In this document: one piece after another, positions 4,373 to 29,027 of the stretch
Numbering within the stretch: the first letter of the stretch is position 1
Layout of the letters: each line of letters opens with the position of its first letter
DNA from: a virus
Virus record (IMG/VR): IMGVR_UViG_3300005274_000001
Coordinates: 64,001-128,000 of that record
DNA length: 64,000 nt
Direction: 5' to 3' (one strand)
Position numbers and translations under genes: made by a program
The notes under the pieces: model-generated
Databases searched by the model: none
Seen by the model: the letters and a program-made list of their open reading frames with translations, nothing else
Told to the model about the DNA's origin: nothing

Positions 4373-4382
4373 TTTTCACCTC

Positions 4383-6889: not shown

Positions 6890-6933
6890 TCTAACCCCCC
6901 CCTTTCTTAAAAACATAATCATATCAATGAAAC

Positions 6934-7440: not shown

Positions 7441-7600
7441 GACACCTCCCCGATTAAAGACTACTGCTAAGGCCCTAGAAAGTCAAGAGGAGAGAGGCAG
7501 GGCTTTATGAAGCACAAAAGCTAGTGGGGGGGGAGATATGTTTAGGATAGCGTTTACTTATTTTTAATAAAACTGGGACTATTCACTATGTCTTTAATCA

Positions 7601-8122: not shown

Positions 8123-8137
8123 CCCATCACCCCCTTC

Positions 8138-8644
8138 TCAAAACTTGTAATCGTAGGTAATAAGACATCCTAAACCTACAATATTGTGTATCTTTTTTAG
8201 TTTACTGAAACCTGAGTTATTCAAGAAAAACTCATCAAGCTCAACAATTGGAAAAAACATGAAATCTGTAAAATAGTCTTCCAGGTTAGGTTTTATAAAT
8301 GAGAAAATGTTTCGCTCATTTATCTCTTTGAAAATAACTTTTCCATTTTCATCATTAGTTACATAGAGTATTTTTTCTTCTTCGTAAAATTTAACATTTT
8401 TTATTTTTCTGTTGGCATCTTCGTGCAAAGAAGATTTTATTGCACTTTCTACATATATTTCAAAGGAGCTTTTTCCTACATCTGTTTCATATATGTGAGA
8501 GATTGTTGAAAAAACTTCATCTCCGAAATAATAGTTTTTGATTATTACGATAGAAAAATAGCTCGGTCTAATAAGATTACTAATGTTTGCAATCTTTTCT
8601 TTTGTTAGACTAACATAGTCTTTTTTTACACTTACCTCTTTCAT
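8138..8644 (-). CDS. Hypothetical protein, array member (ends YKF)
   Basis: ORF with AGGAGGT SD and TTGACC promoter. Confidence 0.8.
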   Translation of the reverse strand: MKEVSVKKDYVSLTKEKIANISNLIRPSYFSIVIIKNYYFGDEVFSTISHIYETDVGKSSFEIYVESAIKSSLHEDANRKIKNVKFYEEEKILYVTNDENGKVIFKEINERNIFSFIKPNLEDYFTDFMFFPIVELDEFFLNNSGFSKLKKIHNIVGLGCLITYDYKF

Positions 8645-8776
8645 GCCTTCACCTCCTCTCCCTAGTTTAAAGGAGTGAGCGCCTTAGGTCAAGTGGAGCG
8701 CAATCGTTCAGGTGCATGTAAATAAAAGATAGCGTTTATTTGTTTTTCCTAAATAAGCATAGGAAATAAATTGATT

Positions 8777-9283
8777 TTAAAAAACTTCTTGACAATATTT
8801 GACTCTATAAATTCTTCCAAAAGTAGGTTCTGCAATAAGTTTTACTCTTTTTGTCAACACATTTTCCTTATAGGCGGCAATCCGATAATCAAGTACCAAA
8901 AGGTAAACATTAGGATAAAACTTGCCAAGAAACTCTATTTCTTTTTTAAAGTATTCTATCTCGCTAAGATTAAACCTAGCAAATGTATAAGAAGGAAGGT
9001 GTTTTGCAACATTGGAAAAAACTTTACTTTCTTTATACTCATGAGCCACAAAGTAGTATTTTATTTCGGGATCAAAAACTTGGTGGAAAAAAATGTATTC
9101 TTTGTCTTTTTTGTCAACTGCTAAGCGAGATATCATTCTGAGATAGTCTTCCTTTTCTATCATTCTTATTTCATTAGCAACGCCTTTCTCCGAATAAAAA
9201 TAGCTTGCTTCAATGATCTCCAAAAACGGAAGAAAGGATTTAATATCTTCAAAATCATTTAGATTTTTTATCAGACTTTGCAT
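8777..9283 (-). CDS. Hypothetical protein, array member (ends QEVF)
   Basis: Paralog of 6934-7440. Confidence 0.85.
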   Translation of the reverse strand: MQSLIKNLNDFEDIKSFLPFLEIIEASYFYSEKGVANEIRMIEKEDYLRMISRLAVDKKDKEYIFFHQVFDPEIKYYFVAHEYKESKVFSNVAKHLPSYTFARFNLSEIEYFKKEIEFLGKFYPNVYLLVLDYRIAAYKENVLTKRVKLIAEPTFGRIYRVKYCQEVF

Positions 9284-9531
9284 TCGCTCACCTCCTCCTC
9301 TCCCCTAAAGCCTACTACTAAAGCCTTATAAGGTCAAGGGGGGAATAGGAAAAGGCCTTGTGGGGATAGAGAGGGGGGACAAGATTTTACGAGGGAAAGG
9401 CTAGCAGGGAAATATATATTTAGAGGATAGCGTTTACTTGTTTTCTCTTTAAGTTTTAAAAAATAAAAAAACATTGGAAAGGAAGGTTTGTGAGGAGATT
9501 TAAGGAAGATTTGTGAGAGGATTTGTGGAAA

Positions 9532-11190
9532 CTATTCCAAATCTTCCATTTTAACGATTGTGTATCCTTTACTCAACAAATCATTGAATGCTTGAGTACT
9601 ATAATCTTTTGTAGCGATTACAACAGCATCCCTAGGAAGTTTTTCTAACCCATAAATGTACAAATCTGTAATCACAATACCAGGAATATTCTTTTTGGCA
9701 ACATGCTCAAAAACTTTGTCAAAAACACTTCCTCCACCGCCATTAATACCATTTTTCACGGCTTTGTGAAGCTTTGCTACACTATTAACATTCTCTATCT
9801 CTTGAAAATCAACATCATTGAAATAGAGGAACACATTTGCATTATTCTCTACCAAAAACCTCAATAGCTTCATTGATTTTTCCAAATCTTCACCGCCCAT
9901 TGAACCTGAAGTATCTACGATAACATACATTTCAAGGCCAAAGTATTTTTTCTTTCCTAAGACTAGACCATCATTGCTCTTAAAGGATTTCTTGGGGTAC
10001 ACAATCCTATGCCTAAAATATCCTCCACGATAAAGGCGATTAAATAACTGGAGAACAAACTGAGGAATCTTTATTTTCTCATTAGTAAGGAGAATATTTC
10101 TTAGGAAGCCGTGTGCAGTACCGATATGCTTTTTATTTTTCTCAAAAAATCCTTCAAGTATTCTCCTGTTCTTTTCGTCATCATAATCACTAACTTCATT
10201 ACCCTCGCCAATAAGTTGACGAATGATTTCATCTTTAATGGCATTATCTAATGGGCCAAATGAGGAAGCATTTGCAAGATTATTTTTGAAATCCTGATCA
10301 TTTTTTGCCTTTTCCCTTATCTGATTAGCTACATCATTGAAGATATTGTTCACCAAATCAAAGAAGTTACCATAAGAATCTCCATTTTGTGAGCCGTTAT
10401 TAGATTGAGAATCTTGTTCTTGTTGATTATTTTGTCCACCTTGTTGATTACTATTGTTTTGTTCACCCTGATTCTGTTGACCATTTTTGTTTTGATTGTT
10501 ATTTTGATTTTGTTGGCTACCTTGATTATTTAGATGTTTATCAATAGTTTCACTAATCATTTGCGAAATCTCCTTTGCTACGGGTTCAAACAAATCAAAG
10601 AAGAACTCTATTAGTTCATAATCACTCATTTTCTTTAGTTGTTCAATATCAACACCTTTAAGATTTGGTTTAAGTTGCATTCCTAGAGTATTAACTCCAC
10701 TACGAATAGTTTTTTCAAAGTTTTCAAAGCATACACTATTCTCCTTGATTTCTTTGGGATCATCAATGAACTGATAGACGATTTCTTGAATGAACAAGTC
10801 TAAGACAAAGTTAGTAAGCATTGGATTCCTCTTAAAATAATGTTCAAATCTTCTAATGTGAGATAATCTCTGGTGTAGTATTTCATGGAATAAAGTAGCA
10901 CCAACAGCATTATAAACAGGAGTATATTTGGTGAAAAGCTTTTCATTAAGATAAATCACAGGCTTGTTTCTCTCATAGGTAGTGAAACCATACATACCAA
11001 CATTTTGACCATTAATCTCATCGGGGAATATATAAATATCTGCCACAAGTAAATCTTCATAACCATTGAGAGTATAAAGTAGAGGTTCTTTATTTTTGGT
11101 ACGATTTGGAGCAAAAAGGATTACTTTAAAGATATCCAAATATTCAGTATCTTCAATCTTTTTGGCTGCGGCTTTAATGATATCAGTCAT
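9532..11190 (-). CDS. HEXXH metallopeptidase-like + vWA domain protein (MoxR partner, DUF2201-like architecture)
   Basis: FHEILH; Q/N-rich linker; VIVDTSGSM MIDAS; GGGGS and ITD motifs; directly downstream of AAA+ gene. Confidence 0.85.
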   Translation of the reverse strand: MTDIIKAAAKKIEDTEYLDIFKVILFAPNRTKNKEPLLYTLNGYEDLLVADIYIFPDEINGQNVGMYGFTTYERNKPVIYLNEKLFTKYTPVYNAVGATLFHEILHQRLSHIRRFEHYFKRNPMLTNFVLDLFIQEIVYQFIDDPKEIKENSVCFENFEKTIRSGVNTLGMQLKPNLKGVDIEQLKKMSDYELIEFFFDLFEPVAKEISQMISETIDKHLNNQGSQQNQNNNQNKNGQQNQGEQNNSNQQGGQNNQQEQDSQSNNGSQNGDSYGNFFDLVNNIFNDVANQIREKAKNDQDFKNNLANASSFGPLDNAIKDEIIRQLIGEGNEVSDYDDEKNRRILEGFFEKNKKHIGTAHGFLRNILLTNEKIKIPQFVLQLFNRLYRGGYFRHRIVYPKKSFKSNDGLVLGKKKYFGLEMYVIVDTSGSMGGEDLEKSMKLLRFLVENNANVFLYFNDVDFQEIENVNSVAKLHKAVKNGINGGGGSVFDKVFEHVAKKNIPGIVITDLYIYGLEKLPRDAVVIATKDYSTQAFNDLLSKGYTIVKMEDLE

Positions 11191-11207
11191 CTTCCTCTAC
11201 CCCCTTT

Positions 11208-12251
11208 CTAAACACCTTTCTTAGAGATATTCTGCAGATACTTGCTCAGCGCACTATTCTTGTGAGTATGAGCATATTCATATACATTGGCCTTCCATTC
11301 ATTACCATTTACTAGTGCAGTATAGGAGAGCATGTAGTGATCGTACTTTTTGTGATTTTTGTGAATGTATTCAAAGATCTCATTAAACTTGTTCAAATCA
11401 ATCATTCCCCTTTTTACAAGATCTGCTACATCTACGATTAGCGAAAGAACCTCGCTATCATTACGAGGATAATCACCTTTAGCATAGTTTTTGAAAGAGT
11501 AATATCTGCCTTGAATAATATAGTTTTTGAAGGCCAAGTATACTTTCTTTCCAGAAGATCCAGAGATGATGATATCAAGCTCGCTATCAATAGACATAAC
11601 ATAATCTTCATTTCCTACCATTTCGTTATTGATTAAATCCTTTAAAAGGATAGCAGTACGAGTATTATTTCTTGGGGAAGGATATTGGTTTAGGTCGTCA
11701 TCCTTGGGTTCTTCATAAAACATATGATCTGGACTATTAAGAATGAAAGATACAAAAAGAGGATTTCCGCCCCTACTCATCGTATATGAAGCCCATTCCT
11801 CCTTGGAAGGAATGGGAAAATCTATAACCACAAACCTTTCTACTAATGGACGAGGGATTATTGTAGCTACTGAAGATTGTTCAGGTTTATTGCCTGTAGC
11901 AATAAAGTAAATATTTTCAAACCTTTTGTCGCCAATCCTCTTATCAAGAACAAGGGATTGCAACAAAGAATGCATATCAGGATTTCTGTTAGTTAGCTCA
12001 TCAAGGATTACAACCTTATTATTAAGATCAAAAGTGATGAAGTGAAGCATCTCCTCTTTAACCTGGGGGAAAGAGATATTTTCAGGGAACATTTGCGAAA
12101 CATTAAGATAGAACACATCTAAACCCATTTCTTTTGCGATTTCCCAAGCGATACTAGTTTTTCCTATTCCCCTATCGCCGAGGAATAGGACAGGAAACCC
12201 ATTGCTAAGAATCCTTTTAGCGATGTTTTTGACCTTTCCTACTTTCTCCAT
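11208..12251 (-). CDS. MoxR-family AAA+ ATPase
   Basis: Walker A GDRGIGKT, Walker B VILDELTN, sensor-1 ATGN, PLVERF arginine finger, PSPR. Confidence 0.9.
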   Translation of the reverse strand: MEKVGKVKNIAKRILSNGFPVLFLGDRGIGKTSIAWEIAKEMGLDVFYLNVSQMFPENISFPQVKEEMLHFITFDLNNKVVILDELTNRNPDMHSLLQSLVLDKRIGDKRFENIYFIATGNKPEQSSVATIIPRPLVERFVVIDFPIPSKEEWASYTMSRGGNPLFVSFILNSPDHMFYEEPKDDDLNQYPSPRNNTRTAILLKDLINNEMVGNEDYVMSIDSELDIIISGSSGKKVYLAFKNYIIQGRYYSFKNYAKGDYPRNDSEVLSLIVDVADLVKRGMIDLNKFNEIFEYIHKNHKKYDHYMLSYTALVNGNEWKANVYEYAHTHKNSALSKYLQNISKKGV

Positions 12252-12382
12252 CTTTACCTCCCTTGCCCCACTAGAGGGGCACTCCTAGCCTATCACAAGG
12301 CCATAGGTTTGGTCAAGCGCCTCCTTGCAAGTGAATGCGCTAAGCGCAACAATAAAAATAGGATAGCGTTTATTTATTTTCC

Positions 12383-13078
12383 TCAAAAAACTTCTTCAAG
12401 AAAAATGTTTAGCGAAAAGTGGTAGTTAAAATAAAACACTCTGTCATTTATTCGTTCACCAGAAAGATAAAACTTGTGATTTAGTGTCTTTGAGAGATTG
12501 TAGAGGATTTTTTCTTCATTTATTTCTCTTGGCGCTGAAATCAGGTTTTCAAAAAAGACTTCCTTCAAAACATTGCTGTAAACGCTTGGATTGCTACGAT
12601 AATAGTAAGCATCTTTTATTGTTGCGAAGTGCAAATAAACGATTGTGTCGTAGTTTGAGGGGAGTTTGTATAGCTTATCTTCGTTTTCTAGTTCTATTGA
12701 TAGGAGATGATACTTTTCCTTGATTTTCTTTTTTATTGGGTTTTGTTGAAATGCTAGGCGATAAATCTTTTTCTTACTCAAAAATTTTTTAAACTTGTGA
12801 GCTACTTGTTTTACAAAGCTATCAAAATCATTGGGGGTTGTATAGTATTTTTCAAATCCTCTTTTTACTTCAAATCTTAGCGTTGAGGTTTTGTATTGAA
12901 CAATAAAAAATTTTGAGGATTCTTCTATTTCTGTTTTTAGCGATGCCAACCTTTTTTCAAATATTTTTAAAAAGTCTTCTTGTGAAAATATAGACAAAGT
13001 TTTTGTTTTAATCTTATACTTTAAATTATTTTTGGGCCTATAAAGAGTAATCGTGATTAGCTTAGCATCAGCAGACAT
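12383..13078 (-). CDS. Hypothetical protein, array member (ends EEVF)
   Basis: 231-aa ORF. Confidence 0.8.
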   Translation of the reverse strand: MSADAKLITITLYRPKNNLKYKIKTKTLSIFSQEDFLKIFEKRLASLKTEIEESSKFFIVQYKTSTLRFEVKRGFEKYYTTPNDFDSFVKQVAHKFKKFLSKKKIYRLAFQQNPIKKKIKEKYHLLSIELENEDKLYKLPSNYDTIVYLHFATIKDAYYYRSNPSVYSNVLKEVFFENLISAPREINEEKILYNLSKTLNHKFYLSGERINDRVFYFNYHFSLNIFLEEVF

Positions 13079-13105
13079 ATCTCATTTTTGCAAAACGAAA
13101 AGAAA

Positions 13106-13136
13106 ACTTCACTACCCCAAAGCGGGGTAGTGAAGT
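13106..13136 (-). terminator. Intrinsic terminator
   Basis: ACTTCACTACCCC-loop-GGGGTAGTGAAGT followed by TTTCTTTT on minus strand after the 13148 stop. Confidence 0.85.
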
Positions 13137-13147
13137 CTAAATATTGC

Positions 13148-13900
13148 TTAGAACAAGCTCATGATGTTGTATTTATCTACGAGGATTTTAGTGAACTCTT
13201 CAGATGTGCTTACCAATCCCTTAACAGCATTCAAGGACTCATTATTCTTTTCTACGATATCAATAGCTAGCTGAACCATATCCCTAACATTCGTGATGTA
13301 GCTCTTTAGAAACTCAACATTAATCTCACTCTCTTTAGCTACACTATTTAGGGCTTTTTTAACTACTCTTGGCCCAAAAGCTTTCAAGAACCTTTCAATG
13401 TCTTTATCATCAACCTCTTGTTCTAGGAAAGTATTGGCAACATCCCTATTCTCCTCAAGAATGTTGATGATTTTGTAGACATCACGCTTCATAATATTCC
13501 CCTTTGTATGTTTATTGGAGAAGTTTAATAGAAGAGGTTTGTAAATAATATTTTCCTTAAACATACCGGAATAGGAGTTTACATAGTAAATAGCATCATT
13601 CTTTGTGAGAAAATAGTAGCGAGAAATATACACAGGATTATCAGGTTCAAACATTGGATTAATGCTGTCAAGTTCAGAGAACTTGAAAACGCCATAACGA
13701 GAAGTAACATAGTTAAAGAAGAGTTTTTCGGTTTCATGGGCCAAAATGTATTCATCGCTAAAAAGATTAATGAGGACCAAATCATTTTCAAAATCCTTAA
13801 CATTATTTACCCTAAGAACATAGAAAAAGCTTTTACGAAGATTTTCCACAAGATTAACTGCTTCGCCTAACTGGTAGATCTTCATCTCTTTCTCCTTCAT
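13148..13900 (-). CDS. Hypothetical protein, monocistronic (ends MSLF)
   Basis: Own promoter (13975-13947), leader hairpin, GGGGAGGT SD, terminator. Confidence 0.85.
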   Translation of the reverse strand: MKEKEMKIYQLGEAVNLVENLRKSFFYVLRVNNVKDFENDLVLINLFSDEYILAHETEKLFFNYVTSRYGVFKFSELDSINPMFEPDNPVYISRYYFLTKNDAIYYVNSYSGMFKENIIYKPLLLNFSNKHTKGNIMKRDVYKIINILEENRDVANTFLEQEVDDKDIERFLKAFGPRVVKKALNSVAKESEINVEFLKSYITNVRDMVQLAIDIVEKNNESLNAVKGLVSTSEEFTKILVDKYNIMSLF

Positions 13901-14077
13901 CTCTTACCTCCCCGCCTAACCCTATGGGTAGGGCTAGGCTACCCCTAGCCTAACACTAAAGCGTTGTTTAGTCAAGAGGGGGGGTAATGGGTAGTGAGCA
14001 GAATGGGGCGCACTAAAGAATAGGATAGCGTTTACTTATTTTTGAGCGATTAAAAAAAATAAACGAAAGCATTTTTC

Positions 14078-16558: not shown

Positions 16559-17035
16559 CTAAAAAACCTCACTTTTTTCGTATTCTGCTCCGATATATAG
16601 TTCATATTTGACATTATTGTTATCGCTTTTGTTATTCGCTACGATTCTAAAAACCAAAACAAAAGTATGATCTGAAAGAGATTCGCTAAACTTTAAAAGC
16701 TTCTTGTAGGTCTTTAAAACATATTCTTCATCTTGCTTGTAGTCAAAATTCAATATCAATTTTTTACTCGTTGTTGTCTTTAGCGTTCTTTCTTTCGTGG
16801 TTATATCTCTTTTGCCTGTAGCTTCAAAGTGAACTTTCATTGATGCTTTTGTATTCTCTTTGGAGATAGAGTTTTTGAGGATTTTAAAATATTTTGTAAA
16901 AAATCTTTCAATTTCGTTAAACCTTCCTTCTCTGAAATCAATTAGGAAAGCGATATTCTTTTTTACTTCATCCTTTCCTTTATTTGCGACAACAGAAAAT
17001 ATTAAGTGATATTTCTTTGGTGTGAAGGGTATCAT
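16559..17035 (-). CDS. Hypothetical protein, array member (ends SEVF), leaderless
   Basis: TTGACA-N17-TAGCTT-N6-ATG. Confidence 0.85.
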   Translation of the reverse strand: MIPFTPKKYHLIFSVVANKGKDEVKKNIAFLIDFREGRFNEIERFFTKYFKILKNSISKENTKASMKVHFEATGKRDITTKERTLKTTTSKKLILNFDYKQDEEYVLKTYKKLLKFSESLSDHTFVLVFRIVANNKSDNNNVKYELYIGAEYEKSEVF

Positions 17036-17129
17036 GTCTATAAGCTAGCATGAGAGTGAATCGTTGTCAAGCGTTGGTACACTATTATAAGTCTGGAAAG
17101 CAGAGATACTATTCAAAACACAGCACAAG

Positions 17130-17636
17130 CTATACATAAGGAAAGGTTCTCCTAAATTTGGTCTTTAGTGAAAATTCAATAGTCTTCTCACCAGTAAAGA
17201 AGTGGATTCCTAAAGAGAAGAAGAAGCTTTTGGCATCTTTGTTTTTGAAGATTCTGTCTTGCGCTTTTTTAGTTTTTAGATAGAAATCTTCAAGTAATGT
17301 GTTTATTTCTTTTGGTGAGCTTAAGGTTTTGTATTCGATATGTGAGGCGTATTGGTTTAGTTTGAAGTTCGTGTCGAAAAAGGTTTCTTCATAAATGCTA
17401 AAGATTAGTTTTGTTGGCAAAAATTTATTAAACAAGTCTAAGAAAAGATTGTAAGTTCTAAAAACTTCATCGCTATACAAATGAAAAGTATACAAATGTT
17501 TTGTAGACTTATTTTTGAAGTTTATTGATTTGTTTATCTTTTTAAGATTACTCTCCTCTAGCGTAAGAATAACTTCTACTAATTCGAAGGCGGGATGACA
17601 ATAAATTTTTACTTTATTCTCTTTTATGTTGTTCAT
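17130..17636 (-). CDS. Hypothetical protein, leaderless
   Basis: TTGACA-N17-TACACT-N6-ATG at 17636. Confidence 0.8.
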   Translation of the reverse strand: MNNIKENKVKIYCHPAFELVEVILTLEESNLKKINKSINFKNKSTKHLYTFHLYSDEVFRTYNLFLDLFNKFLPTKLIFSIYEETFFDTNFKLNQYASHIEYKTLSSPKEINTLLEDFYLKTKKAQDRIFKNKDAKSFFFSLGIHFFTGEKTIEFSLKTKFRRTFPYV

Positions 17637-17676
17637 GTCTTTAGTGTATGCTAGCTGCACTTTGTTGTCAAGTGTG

Positions 17677-18222
17677 TCAGAAAACTTCTTCTACTCTGCT
17701 AAAAATCAGAGATGCTTTTAAGGCATAGTAAAACTGCTTTGCCTCTTCTCTTGTTGGTTTAAGAAGTAAGTAATTTTCTGAGGTAAGTATTATCGCATTG
17801 CGCACGATTGCTTGTCTTAGAACTTCGTTTAGGTTTTCATTTATTTTTGCAGAAAACAAACCTAAATCTAATCTTTCAATGCAATCTCTTTGTCGTTTGT
17901 ATTCTACTTCTTGCAAATAAGAGTTTTCTAATTCAAAGCCTTTGATTCTGGTAAAGAATGTAGTTTGTGAATTTATTTTCTTATGCGAAGAAAATCTTTT
18001 AAATAGTTTTATCGCCTCGCTACTTTCTTTTAGCAAAAAAGTATCGTTTTTGCTGTTGTATTTAAAATCATCTTTTTTAAATTCCAACATTTTAGATTCG
18101 TCAACAAAAGAACTGTCTATCAATTCTTCTTCTGGTTTATCTTCAGAGGAATAACCGAGATAAAAGGATAGTGTGAAATCCTCTATCTCATAAGGATAAA
18201 TGTTTTTCACTTTAAAAGACAT
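17677..18222 (-). CDS. Hypothetical protein, array member (ends EEVF)
   Basis: ATG at 18222 after GAGGTG; N-terminus resembles 18212-18784. Confidence 0.8.
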   Translation of the reverse strand: MSFKVKNIYPYEIEDFTLSFYLGYSSEDKPEEELIDSSFVDESKMLEFKKDDFKYNSKNDTFLLKESSEAIKLFKRFSSHKKINSQTTFFTRIKGFELENSYLQEVEYKRQRDCIERLDLGLFSAKINENLNEVLRQAIVRNAIILTSENYLLLKPTREEAKQFYYALKASLIFSRVEEVF

Positions 18223-18784
18223 CTTTGCACCTCTCAAAAACAAGTGTTACTCTAAACAGATTTTTTGAGTACAATGTACCTTTTCTGGTTTTTTGTTTGT
18301 GTTTGTAGGAAAAATAAGATATAACTTCAAACTCATTGGCTTCAAAGCGAAATGCTTTAGGCAATCCTTGTACAATGTATTTGTTTATGTTTTCACTAAG
18401 AATATAAAGTGAAAATTCCTCTGTTGGAACTTTCATTTGCAGCAGTTCGTGTTCGTCTACGTATTCCGATGTTGAAGGACATGTCATTTCAAAGTAAAAG
18501 AACTGGTCTTTAACAGACCTTTTGTTTCCTGAGGAATAATCTTTGATGAAGTCTTCAAACATGTCATAAATTTTTCCTCTTTTCTCTAAGACAAACAAAT
18601 TTCTTTTTTCGTCAAAATCAATAATATTTTTCCCTAGCTCTATGTAGCTATCAATAGCGCCAAGTTTCACATACTCGTTTTTGATTATTAAATAAAGATT
18701 TGAAAACAGCTCAATTTTTGCGTTTGCAAGAGTGAAAGGAAAAAAGTTAGAAATTTCAATCGCATGATTTTTTTTCTTCTTCAT
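18212..18784 (-). CDS. Hypothetical protein, array member (ends KDVF)
   Basis: ATG at 18784 with AGGAGGT SD. Confidence 0.8.
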   Translation of the reverse strand: MKKKKNHAIEISNFFPFTLANAKIELFSNLYLIIKNEYVKLGAIDSYIELGKNIIDFDEKRNLFVLEKRGKIYDMFEDFIKDYSSGNKRSVKDQFFYFEMTCPSTSEYVDEHELLQMKVPTEEFSLYILSENINKYIVQGLPKAFRFEANEFEVISYFSYKHKQKTRKGTLYSKNLFRVTLVFERCKDVF

Positions 18785-18825
18785 GCTCACCTCCTCAGAA
18801 GAGATCATCTCAGAAGAGATCATCT

Positions 18826-19344
18826 CTAGAATGGATCATCTCTAACTATACGAATTGTCATTTCTAAATTCGTTTTTAGATCAGTTTCGTAATTACTATC
18901 TACTGAGTCATAAGTTAGGTAAAACGACCAAGAAATCTCATGAAAGGTAGGAACTTCCTTTATTGTTTTCTCAACAATTCTTTTCAAGACCAACTTAATG
19001 TTTAAAAAGTTCAAATCCTCAATTTTGTAGAAAACTGGTTCAAATTGATAAAAATCTCTATCTGGTCGATTTGATAAAGGATCCTTAGTATAAAAGTAGA
19101 CAGAGTAGAAAGAGTAAGCATTAAAACTAAATCTCGCTAGTTCTTCTTTCTGCTTCAAAAGTTTCAAGTGATTAACCTCTTTAGTTATCCTCTTATGAAG
19201 CAAATTGAAAGCATTGATAACTTCAGAGAGATTTGAAGTGTATAGATAGTAGTTTTCATGAGATGATTCGCTGTCTTTGCACCTAGCAAATCTATCATAA
19301 GTAAGCTTTGCGCTATGTACTTTTGCGTAGCTCGTCAACTTCAT
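18826..19344 (-). CDS. Hypothetical protein, array member (ends DDPF)
   Basis: AGGAGGAGGT SD, TTGACA promoter. Confidence 0.85.
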   Translation of the reverse strand: MKLTSYAKVHSAKLTYDRFARCKDSESSHENYYLYTSNLSEVINAFNLLHKRITKEVNHLKLLKQKEELARFSFNAYSFYSVYFYTKDPLSNRPDRDFYQFEPVFYKIEDLNFLNIKLVLKRIVEKTIKEVPTFHEISWSFYLTYDSVDSNYETDLKTNLEMTIRIVRDDPF

Positions 19345-19509
19345 TGCTCACCTCCTCCTATAGTCTAGGCGCTAAAAGGCGTTTTGTCAAGGGGGGGCTA
19401 TATTTTGTACTAGGAAAGCGTAGCAAGGCTTTTATCTTTAATGCAAATCTTGTTTAAGCATTTTAGGTGGTACACTATTACCTAAGTCTGGAGGGACAAA
19501 CAAACAACG

Positions 19510-20025
19510 CTAGAAAACCTCATTACCCTTCTTGTATTCAAACTTCACTACAAGAAGTTTTTCTATGCTTTCAACTTCTTTGTTTGCTAGTAGTCTTTGT
19601 AGAAGCGTAGGAAACTTGATGATAGCTGCATTAAAGCGAAAATAGTAAGTAATGCTCTCCATTCCTTCTCTTAGAGCTTTTATTGTGATAGGTTTTCCAA
19701 ATAGGTTTATCATTGAAGCGAATTCGTTTTCATTAAAGTTTGCAATTATGTCGTTTTCTTTCTCAATGTAAATCGGCAGAGAAACTAGTTTGTAAGATGA
19801 GAACATTAAATAGGAGAACTCAAAAAGTGATTCTATTTTTACTGATTTGGGCTTTGCAAAAAAATCTTTCTTAAAATCTTGCAAATAGTTTTTAACTTCT
19901 TTACAAAAATCGTAAAAATCAAAGAATTCTTCATAAGAAGATTTATGCACAATTTTCTTACCTCTTTCTTCTTTGTAGATAATTGATATCGAACTTAGAG
20001 AGTAGGGAAGAAAAGCTTTAAGCAT
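19510..20025 (-). CDS. Hypothetical protein, array member (ends NEVF)
   Basis: ATG at 20025 with GAGGAG SD; the track start at 20085 lies inside repeat motif B. Confidence 0.75.
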   Translation of the reverse strand: MLKAFLPYSLSSISIIYKEERGKKIVHKSSYEEFFDFYDFCKEVKNYLQDFKKDFFAKPKSVKIESLFEFSYLMFSSYKLVSLPIYIEKENDIIANFNENEFASMINLFGKPITIKALREGMESITYYFRFNAAIIKFPTLLQRLLANKEVESIEKLLVVKFEYKKGNEVF

Positions 20026-20159
20026 GTTCCTCTCCTCTGCATTACCTTTCTTACTTACTTTAAAGTAACCCAGGGCGTGGTACACTATTACCTAAGTCTG
20101 GAAGATGACTACTAACAACAAAAGATAAACAACTTCTTTTGTTGTAAACACTCACGTCC

Positions 20160-20657
20160 TCAAAACAAGGTATTAAAATCAAATGAAGCTTCTATGCGCA
20201 AATCTTGTGAAAGTGTCGTTTCATTGATTTTTAACTCGACAAAAGATACAAAGAAAACATTGAGTGTTTTTTCTTCTTTAATCGCATATTTATAGCGTTT
20301 ATTTATCTCACGCTGCATTAGGCTAAAAATCTTTTGTTCACTAAATTCTTCTAGACTAAGAAATCTTTTTCTTAAGCGTTTTCTTAGCTCTTTGTAAGGC
20401 ATATCAAAATAGTAATCATTTGCTAATGAGGATACAATTGTAAAGCGTCCTAATTCGAAAAAAGGAGATTTGAAAAATCTTTTTAGAATCTCAAAGTTTC
20501 TTGAAAAATCAGTAAACGCTTTATCAAAGAATTCGCTTCTTTCTTCTTCAAAAAACTCAGTCTTCCTAGTTGAAAGAAGGCTGTCGTTAATCAAATATTC
20601 TTTTAAAAACCTCAGACTTTTAGGTTTTTGTAGTGAAAAAAGCTCTTCGATGTTCAT
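20160..20657 (-). CDS. Hypothetical protein, array member (ends TLF); paralog of 21710-22216
   Basis: MNIEEL/MRIEDL, KRFFKSPFF/KRFVSSKYF, EEFSEQK/EEFSEEK. Confidence 0.85.
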   Translation of the reverse strand: MNIEELFSLQKPKSLRFLKEYLINDSLLSTRKTEFFEEERSEFFDKAFTDFSRNFEILKRFFKSPFFELGRFTIVSSLANDYYFDMPYKELRKRLRKRFLSLEEFSEQKIFSLMQREINKRYKYAIKEEKTLNVFFVSFVELKINETTLSQDLRIEASFDFNTLF

Positions 20658-20665
20658 GTTTTCAC

Positions 20666-21136
20666 CTAAAAGACTTCTTTTCTTTCTAAATTAGCTTCTA
20701 CTTCTAGAACAACTTTGTCAAGGTTTCTTGTTAGATAATTTAGCTCTATAAAAATTGTTATTGCAGAAACTTCTTTTTCGTTCTTAAGCGCTTTGTTATA
20801 AATTTGACTAATGTTTTCTTCAATAACTCTTAAAACTGTTTTAGGATTAACAAAGGAAGTATTTTTAACACCTATGTCTTCGAATCTAGGTGTTCCAGCT
20901 TTTGTATTTGTAATCAACGCATAGTTAATCTTTAAAATGTCTTGTACGACATCACCTTCAGAATTTTTTACTTGCTTATAATATTTTGAAACAAAACTTC
21001 TAAGGTGCTTATAAAAGTCGTTAGCCTTTTCTTCTTTCAATATTTTTTTAAATGAAAAATTGTTTTCTTCACCTTTTGAGTTTTTAAAGTATTCGAAGTT
21101 AAACTTCGCTTTTGTGAATTCAAAAGGCGCTAGCAT
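20666..21136 (-). CDS. Hypothetical protein, array member (ends KEVF), leaderless
   Basis: TTGACA-N17-TAGCAT-N6-ATG. Confidence 0.85.
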   Translation of the reverse strand: MLAPFEFTKAKFNFEYFKNSKGEENNFSFKKILKEEKANDFYKHLRSFVSKYYKQVKNSEGDVVQDILKINYALITNTKAGTPRFEDIGVKNTSFVNPKTVLRVIEENISQIYNKALKNEKEVSAITIFIELNYLTRNLDKVVLEVEANLERKEVF

Positions 21137-21200
21137 AGCTTGATGCTAGCACGACAGGCTAAGCGTGTCAACTTGGCGCACTATTATCTGGGTCTGGAAA

Positions 21201-21698
21201 CTATAAGATGTCGTAATAGTAGACAACCTCTAGTGATGCGTAGTAATTCCTATGAGGTGTGTAGTAATTCCTATGAGGATGGCCTTTAGTGAGCATTAAA
21301 GAAACGAGAATATAGTCTTTTTTACCAACACCTTTTAATTTTAAAAACTTTGATAATGTTTTATCTCTCTCTTTGATGATTGTATTAAACACCTTTTTAG
21401 GATTTATATCGTATCCCAAAATTTTAATTTTTTCTGCAAAGTCTTCTTGTTTAATATTATTATTAATTGTCAAATAGAAAGGTTCCTCTTCTTTGCTTTC
21501 AAAACTTTTTTCGATGTCGATTGTTTGTTTTATAAACTTTAACATTAATTGATTTGCTCTTTTTTCTAACTCTAACGCTTCAGTATTTTTGTTGAAAGTA
21601 AATTTGTATTTATTCTCTAAAGCTTTTAAGAGTTCTTTTGATGCACCCAAAGGCTCTTGCAAGTAGAAAATTTCGATTTCTCTGAGTTTCAGTTTCAT
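21201..21698 (-). CDS. Hypothetical protein (ends YDIL)
   Basis: ATG at 21698 after GGGGA; internal 21-bp duplication. Confidence 0.75.
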   Translation of the reverse strand: MKLKLREIEIFYLQEPLGASKELLKALENKYKFTFNKNTEALELEKRANQLMLKFIKQTIDIEKSFESKEEEPFYLTINNNIKQEDFAEKIKILGYDINPKKVFNTIIKERDKTLSKFLKLKGVGKKDYILVSLMLTKGHPHRNYYTPHRNYYASLEVVYYYDIL

Positions 21699-21709
21699 CG
21701 CTTCCCCCT

Positions 21710-22216
21710 TCAAAAAACGCCATGTAGAGAGTAGTGCATTTTTAAAAATAGCTTTTTTACAACCAAAGATTTCTTTATCTTTAATGAAACGAAGAATATA
21801 GATTCTACTGATAGATTCTCTTGGTTTATTAAGGCTTTTCTATATTTTTTGTAAAAAGCTTCTTCTACTAAACGCATAAATTTCTCTTCACTAAATTCTT
21901 CAATTCTATAAACTCTTTCAGGAAATCTAGTTAGCAAGCTTTTTTCTTCTCTATAAATATCAAAGTATTCTTCAGAAATATTACATAAAGAAAAAACAAC
22001 AAAATAACCTTTGTAAAAATATTTTGACGACACAAATCTTTTGACAATGTTTAAGTGTTTCAAAAATATGTCGTTAAAATTTTTAATTTCTTCTTCTTGG
22101 GAATTGTAATAATATTTACGCTTTCTAGCTTTAGTAAACACCTGTTTGACGAAGTGTTCAGTTGACACTTCTACGAAAAATATTTCGTGTGTTTTAATTA
22201 AGTCTTCAATGCGCAT
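21710..22216 (-). CDS. Hypothetical protein, array member (ends GVF)
   Basis: Paralog of 20160-20657. Confidence 0.85.
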   Translation of the reverse strand: MRIEDLIKTHEIFFVEVSTEHFVKQVFTKARKRKYYYNSQEEEIKNFNDIFLKHLNIVKRFVSSKYFYKGYFVVFSLCNISEEYFDIYREEKSLLTRFPERVYRIEEFSEEKFMRLVEEAFYKKYRKALINQENLSVESIFFVSLKIKKSLVVKKLFLKMHYSLHGVF

Positions 22217-22222
22217 AGCACC

Positions 22223-22741
22223 TCAAAAACTAGGAAGAACAATGTCATTTATGTCTATAGTGTAAGGAGGTCTTAAAGAGAAAATGTGTTCTATTTCTAC
22301 TAGACAAACTTTTTCGACTTTTTTTATTTCAAAAACTATTCTTGACATTATGGAGATTGGGTAATTGTTTAAGCTTTTAATATTTCTGCTCAGTTCGTTT
22401 AGTGTTTTTTCTGTGTTTTCAATCATTTCGCAAGCTTTTTCTCTGAGAAAAAATGACATATTCTTTTTCTTCTCTGACAGAGTTTCATCATTTTTTAAGC
22501 TTTTTATATCTTTGAAATAAAGCTTTGTCCTTCCTAAAGCATAGCCTCTATAGTTAACAAACATATAAATAGAGATTGTTTTTACATCTTGTTTTAGTGA
22601 TTTTAATACAAAACTGTCAAGCGCTTTAATCAGTTTATCTTTTTCGTTTGCAGAAAAGACGATATTTGAAGTATCTGTGTAGCTAAAGAAAGATTTGTAT
22701 ATTCCCTTTTTCGTAGTTAAATGAAGCTTTTCTAGCCTCAT
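22223..22741 (-). CDS. Hypothetical protein, array member (ends PSF)
   Basis: ATG at 22741 after GGGGGAG; TTGACA-N17-TATGGT promoter. Confidence 0.8.
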   Translation of the reverse strand: MRLEKLHLTTKKGIYKSFFSYTDTSNIVFSANEKDKLIKALDSFVLKSLKQDVKTISIYMFVNYRGYALGRTKLYFKDIKSLKNDETLSEKKKNMSFFLREKACEMIENTEKTLNELSRNIKSLNNYPISIMSRIVFEIKKVEKVCLVEIEHIFSLRPPYTIDINDIVLPSF

Positions 22742-22870
22742 CTCTTCTCCCCCAGAAGACACCATAGAACACAAACCTTAGGCTGTCAAGCGTTGGTACA
22801 CTATTATAAGTCTGGAAGGTGTAGAAGAATGACGCTTGAAGATTGAAGGTCTATATGCTAGTATATAGCT

Positions 22871-23407
22871 ATGCAGACGCAAGGAGGTTGGCTTTTTGAT
22901 AAATCTGTTTTCTTAAGAAGAGCCTTTACACGTTATTTGTATGTTGACAGTAATAATGTGGCTCACAATTACCAAGAAGAAATTGAAAACTTAGAAGGAT
23001 TAGAAAATATTGTTCAATTGGCAAAAGAAAAATTAAAAGAATACGAAAAAGAATTAAGAGAAGCGATTATGTTTGGATTAAAAATTGAAGAAAATTTTCA
23101 ATTAATTGCTATAGCAAACTTTTATAAAGCATCAGTAAGGCATCAGTATTATAAAAAATTAACTCTTAACGAAGCGATGTCTTTTTCTTTTAGAGATGCA
23201 ATCGATGAGGCTATATCTCACTTCTTGAGATTTTGTGAAATTGAAGATTTATCGTTGATTTTAAGTTTAAGTTTTCCTTTTTTATCAGCATATAAATCTC
23301 TATGCAGTTCTGGAAATTACAATTGCTATGCGTTAATTCCTGACCCTCCGCAACTCTTTCACATTATCGCTGAATTTTTGGTTGATAAAAATTTACTTGT
23401 TTTTTAG
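22871..23407 (+). CDS. Hypothetical protein, inverted array member (ends LVF), leaderless
   Basis: TTGAAG-N17-TAGTAT-N6-ATG; weak similarity to 23404-24039. Confidence 0.8.
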   Translation: MQTQGGWLFDKSVFLRRAFTRYLYVDSNNVAHNYQEEIENLEGLENIVQLAKEKLKEYEKELREAIMFGLKIEENFQLIAIANFYKASVRHQYYKKLTLNEAMSFSFRDAIDEAISHFLRFCEIEDLSLILSLSFPFLSAYKSLCSSGNYNCYALIPDPPQLFHIIAEFLVDKNLLVF

Positions 23408-24039
23408 AATGTTTCTTTTATCTCAGCAAACAAGGAGTAGTTGAACAAATTTGGCTTGCTCAAAATTTTTATCATTTCCTTAGTATGTTTGTCAAGTGTT
23501 TTAGCGTTTATCTTTTTTGCACCTACCGAATAAAGATTTGATGAAGTTTCTTCTTCATGAAAATCTAACCAAAAATCAAACTTAAATTGAAAGGAAATTT
23601 TTGACATTAGACCAAACTTTTTAAGAAAATAAAGCGTTGATCTTTCTAATTCTCTTTTGAGGGACAAAGAGGGTATTTTAGAAAGTTTATATTCCTTTTT
23701 CCAATTAAAACCTTTAGCACCTTCATAGAAAGCTAAGGCGTTGAGTTCTAAGACTTCATAAACAATAACCCTTCTTAGCGTGCTTCCACTTTGATTGTTT
23801 ATTAGTTGTTGTATATTATTTAGCCCACTAGTGAACAATTTAACTCTATCTTTGGCGAGATGAAAAAAGTTTTTCACTTCTTCAAACACATCATAATCGT
23901 TTGAAAAGTAGTGAATCAATTTTACTTCATTAAGCTCATTAGTTTCCTTTTTACTTTTTGTCTTATCAAAGTAGCGTATATAGACTGAGCCTCTTGTAAA
24001 GCTTAGTATGTCAAAGGCGCTAAAGGACACTTTAAGCAC
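23404..24039 (-). CDS. Hypothetical protein, array member (ends KETF)
   Basis: 211-aa ORF with TTGACA-N17-TACACT promoter. Confidence 0.8.
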   Translation of the reverse strand: MLKVSFSAFDILSFTRGSVYIRYFDKTKSKKETNELNEVKLIHYFSNDYDVFEEVKNFFHLAKDRVKLFTSGLNNIQQLINNQSGSTLRRVIVYEVLELNALAFYEGAKGFNWKKEYKLSKIPSLSLKRELERSTLYFLKKFGLMSKISFQFKFDFWLDFHEEETSSNLYSVGAKKINAKTLDKHTKEMIKILSKPNLFNYSLFAEIKETF

Positions 24040-24152
24040 CCCCTTTTCTGTTTGCCCAGCTTAGTGTATGAGCACAAGCCTGTCAAGCCTCTATTTAAAA
24101 GAAAATCTTGTTTAAGCGAAGAGAATTTCTTCGCTAAGGCGTTGGTACACTA

Positions 24153-24689
24153 TTATAAGTCTGGAAGGTCTAGTAGAGGTTGCCTAAAGTCTACAGCTTT
24201 GTACTCTAGTTTGAAGGTAGAACTATGCAGAATTTTGTATTTCGACTTTTCGTGAACTAATTGGCTAATAACGAACTCGAATCTAGTTAAAGGAATTCCT
24301 GGTCTTAATCTGAAGAATTCAATTAATGATTCTATCGAATCCTCGATGAAAAAATAAAACGCATTTTTTATTCTCTTCTCACTTGGTGTTATTAGTCTTA
24401 TAAATTCGTGAGGTTTAGACATCTCTAAATCCAACTTGTATTCTTTATTTTTTCTTAACTCATAAGCGTCTATACTTTTTGAGAGTCTAAATTCAAAGTC
24501 TTTGTTAATTATAGCTTTTGCTAATACCTTTTCTATCAATCTCTCTAAAGAATTTTTACTTTTTGTTGGCATTTTAGTTAAATAGTGAAACCTTACTTCT
24601 TTAGAATCTTTCTCATTGCAGTACTCATAGTTTACTTCTATCTGCCTAAGCAGAAAAAGCTGCTTGTTCACTCTAATGAGTTCTCTCAT
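24153..24689 (-). CDS. Hypothetical protein; its stop codon lies inside motif B
   Basis: 178-aa ORF. Confidence 0.75.
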   Translation of the reverse strand: MRELIRVNKQLFLLRQIEVNYEYCNEKDSKEVRFHYLTKMPTKSKNSLERLIEKVLAKAIINKDFEFRLSKSIDAYELRKNKEYKLDLEMSKPHEFIRLITPSEKRIKNAFYFFIEDSIESLIEFFRLRPGIPLTRFEFVISQLVHEKSKYKILHSSTFKLEYKAVDFRQPLLDLPDL

Positions 24690-26933: not shown

Positions 26934-27000
26934 TCTTTATTCACTATAGCACAAGACCTTTATATCGTCCTGCACGCAAAAATTGATATTTTAAAAGCGA

Positions 27001-27235
27001 AACCTTGATTTTTGGTCAAAATTGAGGGTTTTATTTTCTTATATCGATTTTCCTATAGGCGAAATAAAACTTTAGGTGGTGTGAAAATAAAAATCTTTGA
27101 ATTTTGCGCAAAATTGAAGGTTTTAAAATTTCATAAGGTTTTGCCATAGGCAAAATAAAAAACTGAAAGAACAAAAAACTAAAATCTTTGATTTTTGGGC
27201 GAAATTAAAAGTTTTAAGATTTTATAAGGTTTTAT
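27001..27235. repeat. About 2.6 imperfect tandem copies of a roughly 91-bp AT-rich unit
   Basis: Units begin near 27001, 27091 and 27183 (AA-C/TCTTTGA-TTTTG..C-AAATT.A.GGTTTTA...CATAGGC.AAATAAAA). Confidence 0.7.
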
Positions 27236-28836
27236 AAGGGGTCAGATAAAACATAAACAAAATTTCCAGCAGTAGGAACTTTCATATAGCCATTAGCTTT
27301 CATGATTTCGCTTTCAGATAAATTTTCGTCAAAGAAATTTATTTCGTATTTATTTTCTTTGTAGTAGTCTTTTAACTTATGTTTTTGAAAAAGTTCTCTA
27401 GGATAAAGCTCTCTTCTGTTCTTTGTATAAAAGTATCCAGGTTTTGTTATCCCAATTCTTTTAAATCCAAGTTTCTCGTAAACCTTGCCACTAGAATACA
27501 TAAGGTCAGCATAAGAGATTAAGTTTTTAGGAGAGAAGTGTTTTATTATCTTTCCTAATGCGCCAACAACAAGCGTGTTTTTCTTTGAGGCAAATCTTAT
27601 TAGCTCCCAAGAAAAGTTTTCGTTGTATCTAGGTTTTGCAAAAGAAGCTGCTGCTACGAGTTCATCATCGTAATACAAACCAAAAGCGTACTTAAAGCTT
27701 GCACCTCCAGAGATGTGATTTTCTTCAAAAAATTCGTTTGCAGTAGTGTAGTCAACTTCTTCAATTCTTGTCTTCCTAGCAAAAATTCTTCTTTCAAAAA
27801 GTCCCAGCTTTGCTTTTACTAGCGATTTGACGATATCTAGTTTTTGGTAAATAATAGGTTCGTAGAAGAATAGAACATCAATTCCTTTATCAAGGAATAA
27901 CAATTTTTTCTTTTGCAGATGATTAAAAGGCTTCTTTTCTTCTGAGTGCCAATAAGTTCCGTTAAGCTCTATAGCTAGATTTTTGGCTGGAATAAAAAAG
28001 TCTAATTCTAGTTCATCTCTATAACGAAACTCATAAGGAAAAGAGATGTCTTTTAAAACTTCATTTTCAAAAAATTCTTCAAGCGTGCTTTTCTTTATTC
28101 TGCAACTAGGACAAGAGGTAACGTTGTATTGAATTAGAGAATTCAGGTGATATTCAAAGACATTTCCACAAGAACAAAGAAGAGTAACTTTAGAACGCAT
28201 TTTGTAATCTTTAGGCAAGATTTTTAAGTTGGCGCTAGTTAAAAAGTCTTCTACTTTTTGCTTTACTCCTACTTGCTTTTCAATTCTTCTTTTAATCTTT
28301 TCTTCTTTTTCATCTATTTTTCTTTTCTTCTCCTCCACCAAAAAGGAAAACCTTTCTTTCTTCTTGAGATAGACATCTCTCAGCGTTGAATACTTCAATC
28401 GCCAAATTTCTTGGTTTTTATAAGTAAGAGAAAACTCTAAACTAGACAAATCTAAAACAGCCTCAATTGAGTAATTTTTTTCTGCTTCTTCTACAAGATG
28501 CAAAATTTGCGGCAAATGAATAAAAAACTTCATGCTATTCAAAAATTCAAAAAACGCCTCCTCAAAAGAAATTTCTTCAAAATTTTCTACAAGTCTATAG
28601 TGCCTCTTTGTTTCCAGGTTATAAACTAAGCTCTTTCTAGCCTTATGAGGATGTGTAGCTTTTCTATAGAGAGAAGAATATGGAACAAGAAATTTGTCTT
28701 CTTTATAAAAAACAACTACGCCATCCTTAGAAAATTTTTTCTCAAAATTTTCAACAAAAGAAAGCATTTTGTCAAATCTTTTCTTCGCTTGAAGAACTTT
28801 TTTGTTTTCAATTTGGTCAGGTAGGACAATTCTCAT
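27232..28836 (-). CDS. Hef-like free-standing endonuclease: Zn ribbon + Vsr/DUF559-type nuclease + GNAT/Mom-like C-terminal domain
   Basis: CSCG...CPSC; ELDFFIPAKNLAIELNGTYWH; WELIRFA, LISYAD, GKVYEKLGF. Confidence 0.75.
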   Translation of the reverse strand: MRIVLPDQIENKKVLQAKKRFDKMLSFVENFEKKFSKDGVVVFYKEDKFLVPYSSLYRKATHPHKARKSLVYNLETKRHYRLVENFEEISFEEAFFEFLNSMKFFIHLPQILHLVEEAEKNYSIEAVLDLSSLEFSLTYKNQEIWRLKYSTLRDVYLKKKERFSFLVEEKKRKIDEKEEKIKRRIEKQVGVKQKVEDFLTSANLKILPKDYKMRSKVTLLCSCGNVFEYHLNSLIQYNVTSCPSCRIKKSTLEEFFENEVLKDISFPYEFRYRDELELDFFIPAKNLAIELNGTYWHSEEKKPFNHLQKKKLLFLDKGIDVLFFYEPIIYQKLDIVKSLVKAKLGLFERRIFARKTRIEEVDYTTANEFFEENHISGGASFKYAFGLYYDDELVAAASFAKPRYNENFSWELIRFASKKNTLVVGALGKIIKHFSPKNLISYADLMYSSGKVYEKLGFKRIGITKPGYFYTKNRRELYPRELFQKHKLKDYYKENKYEINFFDENLSESEIMKANGYMKVPTAGNFVYVLSDPL

Positions 28837-28861
28837 GGCACTAGTATAACAAAAAAAATTT

Positions 28862-28938
28862 TGGTGGGGCGTGTAGGACTCGAACCTACAACCTACCGGT
28901 TATGAGCCGGCTGCTCTCACCAGTTGAGCTAACGCCCC
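28862..28938 (-). tRNA. tRNA with CAT anticodon (probably Ile2/lysidine; otherwise elongator Met)
   Basis: GGGGCGT...GCCGG-CTCATAA-CCGGT...GTAGG-TTCGAGT-CCTAC-ACGCCCC-ACCA cloverleaf with encoded CCA. Confidence 0.95.
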
Positions 28939-28950
28939 ACGATTATTATT

Positions 28951-29027
28951 TGGCGAGGGGTGCAGGACTCGAACCTGCAACCTAGGGCTTAGAAGGCCCT
29001 TGCTCTGTCCTGTTGAGCTAACCCCTC
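28951..29027 (-). tRNA. tRNA-Arg (TCT)
   Basis: Cloverleaf, AGGGC-CTTCTAA-GCCCT anticodon arm, A20 Arg determinant, encoded CCA. Confidence 0.95.

Follow-up and report, generated by a model that had tools for sequence, protein, structure and literature searches.

A repeated asymmetric two-box motif in the early region of a phiYS40-like Thermus phage as a possible protein-binding site

Why a sequence of about 30 bp should recur between the small early genes of a large thermophilic phage is the question raised by a stretch of the IMG/VR record IMGVR_UViG_3300005274_000001. The window analysed is the whole of that stretch, 64,000 nt long and corresponding to bases 64001-128000 of a source genome of 157,225 bp with 33% G+C, and the repeated sequence is called motif B. 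A preliminary description of the window, made from its letters, had left three explanations side by side: an activator site at about -40 to -65, antisense promoters whose transcripts, all sharing one 5' end, would enter the 3' ends of array genes, and recombination sites of gene cassettes. We tentatively read motif B as a lineage-specific, asymmetric two-box site in duplex DNA for a phage protein, with a primase-polymerase (prim-pol)/winged-helix protein as candidate reader and promoter control or the start of replication as possible effects.

The observation itself was confirmed. All six copies described for the window were found at their places, with the GG of box 1 at 17076, 19469, 20079, 21175, 22795 and 24144, and a seventh copy (c7) was located beyond the window, at genome position 152255 in the replication-gene region. 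Motif B is composed of box 1 (TTGGTACACTATTA), a spacer of 3-5 variable bases and box 2 (AGTCTGGAAG), together about 30 bp. A search with the exact 22-mer allowing up to three mismatches gave 3 matches, against 0.00 expected from 100 shuffles; with a looser pattern, all seven matches in the whole genome were situated on the plus strand (7/7), and a reversed control pattern gave 0. For the alignment, 23 copies were used, seven from the genome of the window phage and eight each from the Thermus phages phiYS40 and TMA. In the consensus, (g)TT-GGTACACTATTA is separated by 3-5 variable bases, the last of them A, from GTCTGGA(A/G)(G/A), after which a weak (A/G)T(G/C)TA often stands. About 20 box positions (12+7) are invariant or nearly so, being kept in 22 of 23 copies, and the A before GTCTGG is invariant, while the spacer varies in both length and sequence. 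Six of the seven copies are intergenic and one (c6) overlaps the four terminal codons of a gene.

No inverted symmetry was found in motif B, and no significant secondary structure was predicted for either strand in 14 folds, with z-scores from -0.8 to +1.5 relative to mononucleotide shuffles; Rfam gave 0 matches at the motif. The plus-strand reading TG-G-TACACT, reported for five of the six copies, was recovered as TGGTACACT in exactly five, the copy at 21175 (c4) being GGCGCACT. In a 98.4%-identical strain, represented by the metagenome contig L051, c4 reads GGTACACT with GGTACAC intact, so the change in box 1 of c4 is recent. The minus-strand TATAAT noticed in three copies is indeed present in three of the six in the window, but as a conserved feature it does not hold: of the 23 copies in the three phages only 5 have it, and it is therefore probably incidental.

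Judged from its sequence, the window phage is a relative of phiYS40 (152,372 bp) and TMA (151,483 bp) and is a phiYS40-like Thermus myophage: over window positions 16600-24500 the DNA identity is about 77% and the genomes are collinear. The Pfam and PHROGs scans describe a contractile-tailed phage with DNA polymerase A, ribonucleotide reductase, ThyX, RecA, DnaB, a DnaG-type primase and a PrkA/SpoVR/DUF444 trio. Phages of the phiYS40 type serve as the chief model of large phages infecting extreme thermophiles, and phiYS40 itself is lytic.

All seven positions of motif B are orthologous in phiYS40 and TMA and lie on the same strand. Each of these phages has 8 copies, the ortholog of c1 being a tandem pair 46 nt apart, and two further one-mismatch matches to box 1 (scored on box 1 alone). 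Between the window phage and phiYS40, 129 of 136 box columns are identical (95%) against 424 of 612 positions (69%) in the 40-nt flanks, and because of this difference motif B is taken to be under selection and selectively maintained. At c3 and c6 the motif is retained in flanks that can barely be aligned with phiYS40 and TMA. The preliminary description had named simple recent duplication of spacers among the outcomes that would refute its explanations; this is rejected, since the copies are orthologous across phages only about 77% identical. Chance is likewise ruled out, by the shuffle counts, the orthology and the identity of boxes versus flanks.

When viral contigs, metagenome contigs and prokaryote genomes, one for each species, were scanned for the pattern, loci with several copies were confined to this phage lineage. 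The other matches were all single copies, in 24 prokaryote genomes, 4 other viral contigs and 19 metagenome loci, which is consistent with chance; the 23 viral and metagenome matches showed no similarity to the genome of the window phage. A site for a host transcription factor was rejected, as 0 of the 24 prokaryote records is titled Thermus, in a scan for the exact pattern that did not search for degenerate host sites. A reader encoded by the phage is favoured, because motif B has no multi-copy occurrence beyond the lineage and no Thermus-titled match. A full-text literature search for the letters of the motif, whose coverage excluded the main phiYS40 and TMA papers (2006, 2007, 2011), returned only unrelated papers, and to our knowledge motif B is undescribed.

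The position of the copies relative to promoters is the next line of evidence. The promoters of the phage are of host type, TTGAC(A/T/C)-17-TAnnnT, with the -10 hexamer very often exactly 6 nt before the start codon; a scan for -10 hexamers 5-8 nt (mostly 6) ahead of start codons gave 72 rows. Since the -10 lies about 6 nt ahead of the start codon, the mRNAs are predicted to be leaderless. Dozens of genes carry TAnnnT exactly 6 nt before their start without a Shine-Dalgarno sequence (e.g. window 17042-17035, 21143-21136 and 22859-22873), and the leaderless set includes early genes that also bear a -35 hexamer. In the work of Sevostyanova et al. 2007, promoters with -35 and -10 elements are reportedly the early class of phiYS40, the middle and late classes having a -10-like element only; host polymerase is said to transcribe all three classes in vitro, which left the temporal switch unexplained. 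Two reviews, one covering phiYS40 (PMC3594737) and one the Deinococcus-Thermus group generally (PMC12340547), are concordant with the promoter pattern found here.

Six copies (c1, c2, c4, c5, c6 and c7) precede a minus-strand TTGACA-17-TAnnnT promoter, at gaps of 5, 78, 3, 5, 57 and 42 nt, respectively. As had been described, the copies at 17071, 21173 and 22790 directly abut a minus-strand TTGACA (gaps 5, 3 and 5 nt), and the two copies placed 60-80 bp upstream were measured at 78 and 57 nt from the hexamer. The promoter at c3 is decayed in the window phage; in phiYS40 and TMA a TTGACC lies 6 nt away, and every position of motif B is therefore upstream of a minus-strand promoter, for c3 in the relatives. 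The copies c5 and c7 are situated between divergent promoters. All seven copies are co-oriented with minus-strand early units, with no copy at a plus-strand unit for contrast. Among 40 candidate -35/-10 promoters beside gene starts, motif B is located at most 75 nt upstream of 6, and c2 falls just outside this limit, at 78 nt.

Two invariant boxes, a flexible spacer, a single orientation and an intergenic, promoter-proximal placement are features that an asymmetric site for one protein would fit. Because the boxes are fixed while the spacer varies in length and sequence, two linked reading heads fit better than a sigma factor alone. One phage-encoded protein would bind both boxes through two DNA-reading surfaces, and the best candidate for this binder is the early protein encoded beside c7, in which a prim-pol domain and a helical domain are predicted to precede a winged helix at the C-terminus. 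Once bound, the protein would influence the neighbouring early promoters and the read-through between early units, in the manner of an operator or stoperator; alternatively, it would start DNA synthesis at motif B, in the manner of the Rep protein of ColE2. As a by-product, the repeated copies serve as substrates for homologous recombination, by which early-gene cassettes are removed or added.

The candidate gene lies directly downstream of c7 (genome 152325-153722; L010:5325-6722), and c7 ends 10 nt ahead of its -35 hexamer. The 465-aa product is 95% identical to the hypothetical protein gp028 of phiYS40, and a further homolog shares 73% identity with it. It shows motifs I and II of the archaeo-eukaryotic primases (AEP), IVIDVD and GGRIH, with D61, D63, S91, G94 and H97 invariant in an alignment of nine sequences, and a remote homolog carries the Pfam domain AEP-TOTE (4e-24). 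The best Foldseek match of the AlphaFold model was a CAPP prim-pol domain (probability 1.00, E 3e-3); the modelled C-terminus matches winged helices of the CodY/MarR type, and the nearest neighbours in a protein language model are PriCT_1+TrmB/MarR proteins or are named Replication protein B. Based on these predictions, the gp028-type protein resembles an AEP primase-polymerase that ends in a winged helix, that is, an initiator of plasmid type existing beside the DnaG and DnaB of the phage. It is named here as a candidate reader of motif B by adjacency and analogy.

In logic, the closest described analogue is the operator/stoperator system of cluster A mycobacteriophages. These sites (L5 gp71-type) are asymmetric, located at promoters and between genes, oriented with transcription and read by a monomeric repressor with two domains (PMC9283540). 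Motif B is likewise asymmetric and intergenic, has one orientation in 7/7 copies and stands next to a -35 hexamer at 3-4 of the 7 positions. The two differ in that stoperators are 13-mers in more than 20 copies, in a temperate phage with a known repressor, whereas motif B has about 30 bp, a variable spacer and 7-8 copies, and no sequence similarity exists between them. No repressor or integrase was found among the 172 open reading frames (ORFs) by Pfam and PHROGs, which revealed only a Myb-like helix-turn-helix (HTH) protein, a weak HTH_11 match and the prim-pol/winged-helix protein. Motif B most likely belongs to a kind already known, that of repeated asymmetric sites for proteins in the early regions of phages.

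Several points weigh against this reading. The copies stand at anything from 3 to 78 nt from the -35 hexamer and show no helical phasing, an uncommon arrangement for a classical activator. Motif B can be no general part of early promoters, because only 6 of about 40 have it within 75 nt. The case for the candidate binder is built on its adjacency to one of the seven copies and on a mediocre structural model (mean pLDDT, a per-residue confidence score, 64.5), and its PriCT and HTH matches fall below the Pfam cut-offs (E 0.002-0.17; PriCT_1 0.13, HTH families 0.07-0.17). The uniform orientation could be inherited through cassette duplication and need not be required for function. Box 1 can, in addition, be read as an extended -10 element. 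For a role of c7 in replication, the minimum of the cumulative GC skew coincides with c7, but the skew at four-fold sites gave no replication signal and follows the coding strand, so the minimum is no independent support and was dropped. Finally, a more conventional origin candidate than motif B is present at window 26934-27231, an AT-rich intergenic region of 298 bp with three degenerate direct repeats of about 91 bp, beside a homing-endonuclease-like gene; this region may serve as an origin or in control.

Of the three earlier explanations, a protein site is the one preferred here: the position of about -40 to -65 agrees exactly with three of the six copies in the window, and all seven stand as upstream elements at variable distance, where the protein might activate or repress. 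A classical activator site fits poorly, the distance being variable. An UP element, an A/T-rich tract at -40 to -60 contacted by the alpha C-terminal domain, fits poorly as well: only 3 of 7 copies lie at that distance, and the cores GGTACAC and GTCTGG are not A/T. A selectively maintained site of 30 bp, present at some of the early promoters and where the replication-gene cluster begins, gives a handle on both the temporal switch and the replication origins; we know of no mapped replication origin for phages of the phiYS40 type. In practical terms, motif B is a defined DNA probe with which its binder could be fished out, and one candidate protein is at hand. The coordinates of the copies and of the neighbouring features are given in Table 1.

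Table 1. Copies of motif B and associated features, in window coordinates
Feature	Position	Strand	Remarks
Motif B, c1	17071..17100	+	GCGTT GGTACACTATTA TAA GTCTGGA AAG; minus-strand -35 5 nt away
Motif B, c2	19467..19495	+	minus-strand -35 (19385-19390) 78 nt away
Motif B, c3	20077..20105	+	26 nt the same as in c2; no recognisable -35 after it
Motif B, c4	21173..21200	+	box 1 decayed (GGCGCAC); minus-strand -35 3 nt away
Motif B, c5	22790..22819	+	between divergent promoters: minus-strand -35 at 5 nt, plus-strand -35 (gene 22871-23407) at 19 nt
Motif B, c6	24139..24168	+	minus-strand -35 57 nt away; overlaps last four codons of ORF 24153-24689
Early-type promoter TTGACA-17-TAGCTT	17042..17070	-	-10 exactly 6 nt before ATG, leaderless; ORF 16559-17035
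Early-type promoter TTGACA-17-TAGACT	19362..19390	-	ORF 18826-19344
Early-type promoter TTGACA-17-TAGCAT	21143..21171	-	leaderless; ORF 20666-21136
Early-type promoter TTGACA-17-TATGGT	22761..22789	-	ORF 22223-22774
Early-type promoter TTGACA-17-TAAGCT	24058..24086	-	ORF 23404-24039
Plus-strand promoter TTGAAG-17-TAGTAT	22836..22864	+	leaderless; gene 22871-23407
Only plus-strand gene in the array	22871-23407	+	
611-bp cassette	19503..20113	.	ORF 19510-20085 and one motif copy; missing in the L051 strain; crossover just right of motif
Shared 15-mer AAATCTTGTTTAAGC	19445..19459	+	separates c2 from its promoter; phiYS40/TMA retain it at their c2 ortholog
Second copy of the 15-mer	24103..24117	+	followed by a hairpin with 8-bp stem (AGCGAAGA...TCTTCGCT), then c6

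Box 1 leads to the first of the rival explanations, in which motif B would serve the sigma-A polymerase of the host as an extended -10 promoter on the plus strand (TGgTACACT), producing RNAs with the common 5' end (A)GUCUGGAAG. The RNAs from five copies would be antisense to the 3' ends of early genes, those from two would enter the leaders of plus-strand genes, and such transcripts could aid the shut-off of early genes. We regard such a promoter as unlikely. Box 1 is indeed like an extended -10 promoter of the sigma-70/sigma-A type, including the -35-less middle and late promoters of phiYS40. TGnTAnnnT is kept in 22 of 23 copies from the three phages, the exception being c4 (GGCGCACT), and a TGn precedes the -10 in about half of the -35-less leaderless promoters of the phage. 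In addition, TACACT is the -10 hexamer of a -35-containing promoter at window 17643-17671, and the invariant A before GTCTGG is spaced about as a start site would be. However, the own promoters of the phage are followed by a start codon, whereas ATG, GTG or TTG occurs 5-8 nt past the hexamer in 0/7 copies of motif B. At five of the seven no plus-strand gene lies downstream, and the two genes that do each have their own leaderless -35/-10 promoter and no Shine-Dalgarno sequence. The invariant C-10, A-9 and C-8, the ATTA and the conserved 8-nt second box go beyond the needs of a sigma factor, and no consistent terminator follows on the plus strand. Because TAGTGT is equally conserved on the minus strand (22/23), the match to TAnnnT is not specific. 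Of the antisense promoters suggested earlier, the conserved TGnTAnnnT therefore stands, while the missing start codons and the conservation beyond the needs of sigma speak against the promoter itself.

A second rival, which we hold to be rather improbable, turns the replication side of the protein-site reading into the whole function: the copies would be dispersed unidirectional mini-origins or priming sites for an AEP primase-polymerase/winged-helix initiator of the ColE2-Rep type, aided by negative supercoiling driven by transcription. The placement upstream of strong early promoters would acquire a meaning here, as negative supercoiling would help an initiator without ATPase to open the DNA. 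Rep of the ColE2/ColE3 type combines an AEP primase with PriCT and HTH domains; the origin to which it binds, very small and asymmetric, lies by or in its own gene, and Rep makes a short primer there (PMC4538821, PMC5304414, PMC5862659, PMC4980987). Similarly, c7 is a small asymmetric site beside a gene with AEP motifs and a predicted winged helix. In contrast to the single origin per replicon in those systems, motif B has seven dispersed copies, six of which are 64-71 kb from the candidate gene; the PriCT and HTH domains of the candidate remain below the Pfam cut-offs, and beside the candidate there are a DnaG-type primase and a DnaB helicase in the phage. If true, this would be a design of replication start undescribed for a large lytic phage, and early transcription would be tied to the firing of origins.

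A third rival does without any molecular reader: motif B would be an intergenic module whose copies are kept alike by gene conversion and whose only role is in the shuffling of cassettes. We find this quite doubtful as a full account, although the crossover on which it draws is observed. On contig L051 there is a single copy of the motif, with the left flank of c2 and the right flank of c3, so that a cassette of 611 bp is missing. The independent run X4 has the same junction, 19502 joined to 20114, in a joint with 30 letters on its shorter side that is weak on its own, and a neighbouring contig of X4 retains the ORF; the runs are represented by contigs, probably from DNA. Since both copies and the ORF are present in phiYS40 and TMA, the loss is a deletion; its crossover falls within a microhomology, AACAAC, that adjoins the motif on the right. 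A conversion between c2 and c3 is suggested as well, because these copies are identical over 26 nt in the window phage and differ in phiYS40 and TMA. Furthermore, the start of YS40_126, a gene specific to phiYS40, lies about 30 nt to the right of c3, the gene content of the array is variable, and RecA-like and Rad52-like recombination proteins are encoded by the phage.

Conversion within a genome leaves unexplained, however, why about 20 box positions remain fixed across three phages while spacer and flanks change, and the distant c7 retains the same boxes. Moreover, two other indels end away from motif B, namely at the phiYS40 genes 120-121 and at genes 123-124, the latter flanked by a promoter repeat of about 80 bp. 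At window 19366-19400, strains of runs X5-X7 contain 618 extra letters flanked by a 35-nt repeat from the promoter region, likewise not ending at the motif. The PeSL (promoter early stem-loop) elements of T4-like phages are described as small intergenic motifs in hyperplastic regions of orphan early genes that act as points of homologous exchange for indels (PMC4122927, PMC2839356). Motif B resembles them in lying in a variable array of small orphan early genes and in the 611-bp deletion that joins c2 and c3; unlike PeSL, which consist of a terminator and an early promoter, it has no stem-loop, and its -35/-10 pair lies outside at 3-78 nt. The loss of cassettes by homology-driven shuffling near copies of motif B is documented, and repeated intergenic control motifs are the places where a thermophilic phage with no relation to T4 loses cassettes of orphan early genes.

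The cassette recombination sites of the preliminary description hold in this sense, as one homologous deletion seen in two data sets, and fail as a site-specific system. No integrase was identified in the whole genome, in which the only recombinase is a short ORF with an IS607-type resolvase domain by a TnpB gene, about 60 kb off. Since integrase, hairpin and attC-like anatomy are all lacking, motif B is not a site-specific cassette system; the absence of a tyrosine-recombinase integrase, of a hairpin and of attC-like anatomy rules out an integron attC site in particular, and the lack of significant folding does the same for any hairpin, attC or ssi-like structure.

An action of motif B at the RNA level in the minus-strand early transcripts, for example in processing, pausing or antitermination between early genes, is very improbable: five of the seven copies do lie 3-58 nt past the stop codon of an upstream minus-strand gene in sense orientation, yet neither a conserved secondary structure nor an Rfam match was found, and c5 and c7 head divergent units where no upstream minus-strand gene ends. 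Nothing was detected at the motif by the tRNA search and Rfam, which dismisses a tRNA or known RNA family. A promoter for a single-subunit polymerase was suggested by a resemblance of box 1 to the ...ACACTATA core of T7/SP6-like promoters; this reading was ruled out, since no RNA polymerase or sigma factor gene was found in the Pfam scans (168 of the 172 ORFs called).

Beside the copies of motif B, an extra sequence had been reported for the two most distant ones, and it is present as AAATCTTGTTTAAGC at 19445 and 24103; these are its two exact copies in the genome, with no more. The genes around the motif belong to an array of about 40 small minus-strand ORFs at window 228-26933. The ORFs match only lineage-specific PHROGs, 0 Pfam families reached the cut-off for 38 of them, and the gene content differs between the window phage and phiYS40/TMA. 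Most of the orphan proteins (about 170 aa) end in a C-terminal (E/D)-x-F, such as EEVF, KETF or EEIF.

Another repeated sequence, motif A (AAGTAAACGCTATCC in gene sense, GATAGCGTTTACTT on the plus strand), occupies window 993-14060, 7-100 nt upstream of nine other early promoters. It often follows directly on a CCTCCCC...GGGGAGG terminator, and three of its copies have the opposite orientation. As described before, motif A ends where motif B begins: same-strand copies of motif A span genome 60744-78026 (to 14026 of the window), and motif B starts at 17071. The suggestion of two regulons is plausible, because motif A is placed likewise upstream of other early promoters.

Mobile elements were noted in the same genomes. 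An IS607-like pair, a short resolvase-domain ORF and a TnpB/Cas12f-like ORF, is located at genome 21177-22977 (L006:1177-2977), and the transposase of TMA occupies another site, within the ortholog of ORF 24153-24689. A link of IS607/TnpB to motif B was judged absent, the element of the window phage being about 60 kb off and the TMA transposase about 300 nt from c6. The tRNA search gave two tRNAs only, at 28862-29027. At window 27232-29027, a 534-aa protein matching homing/HNH endonucleases in PHROGs (E ~1e-78) adjoins these genes, tRNA-Met and tRNA-Arg, which are 76% alike.

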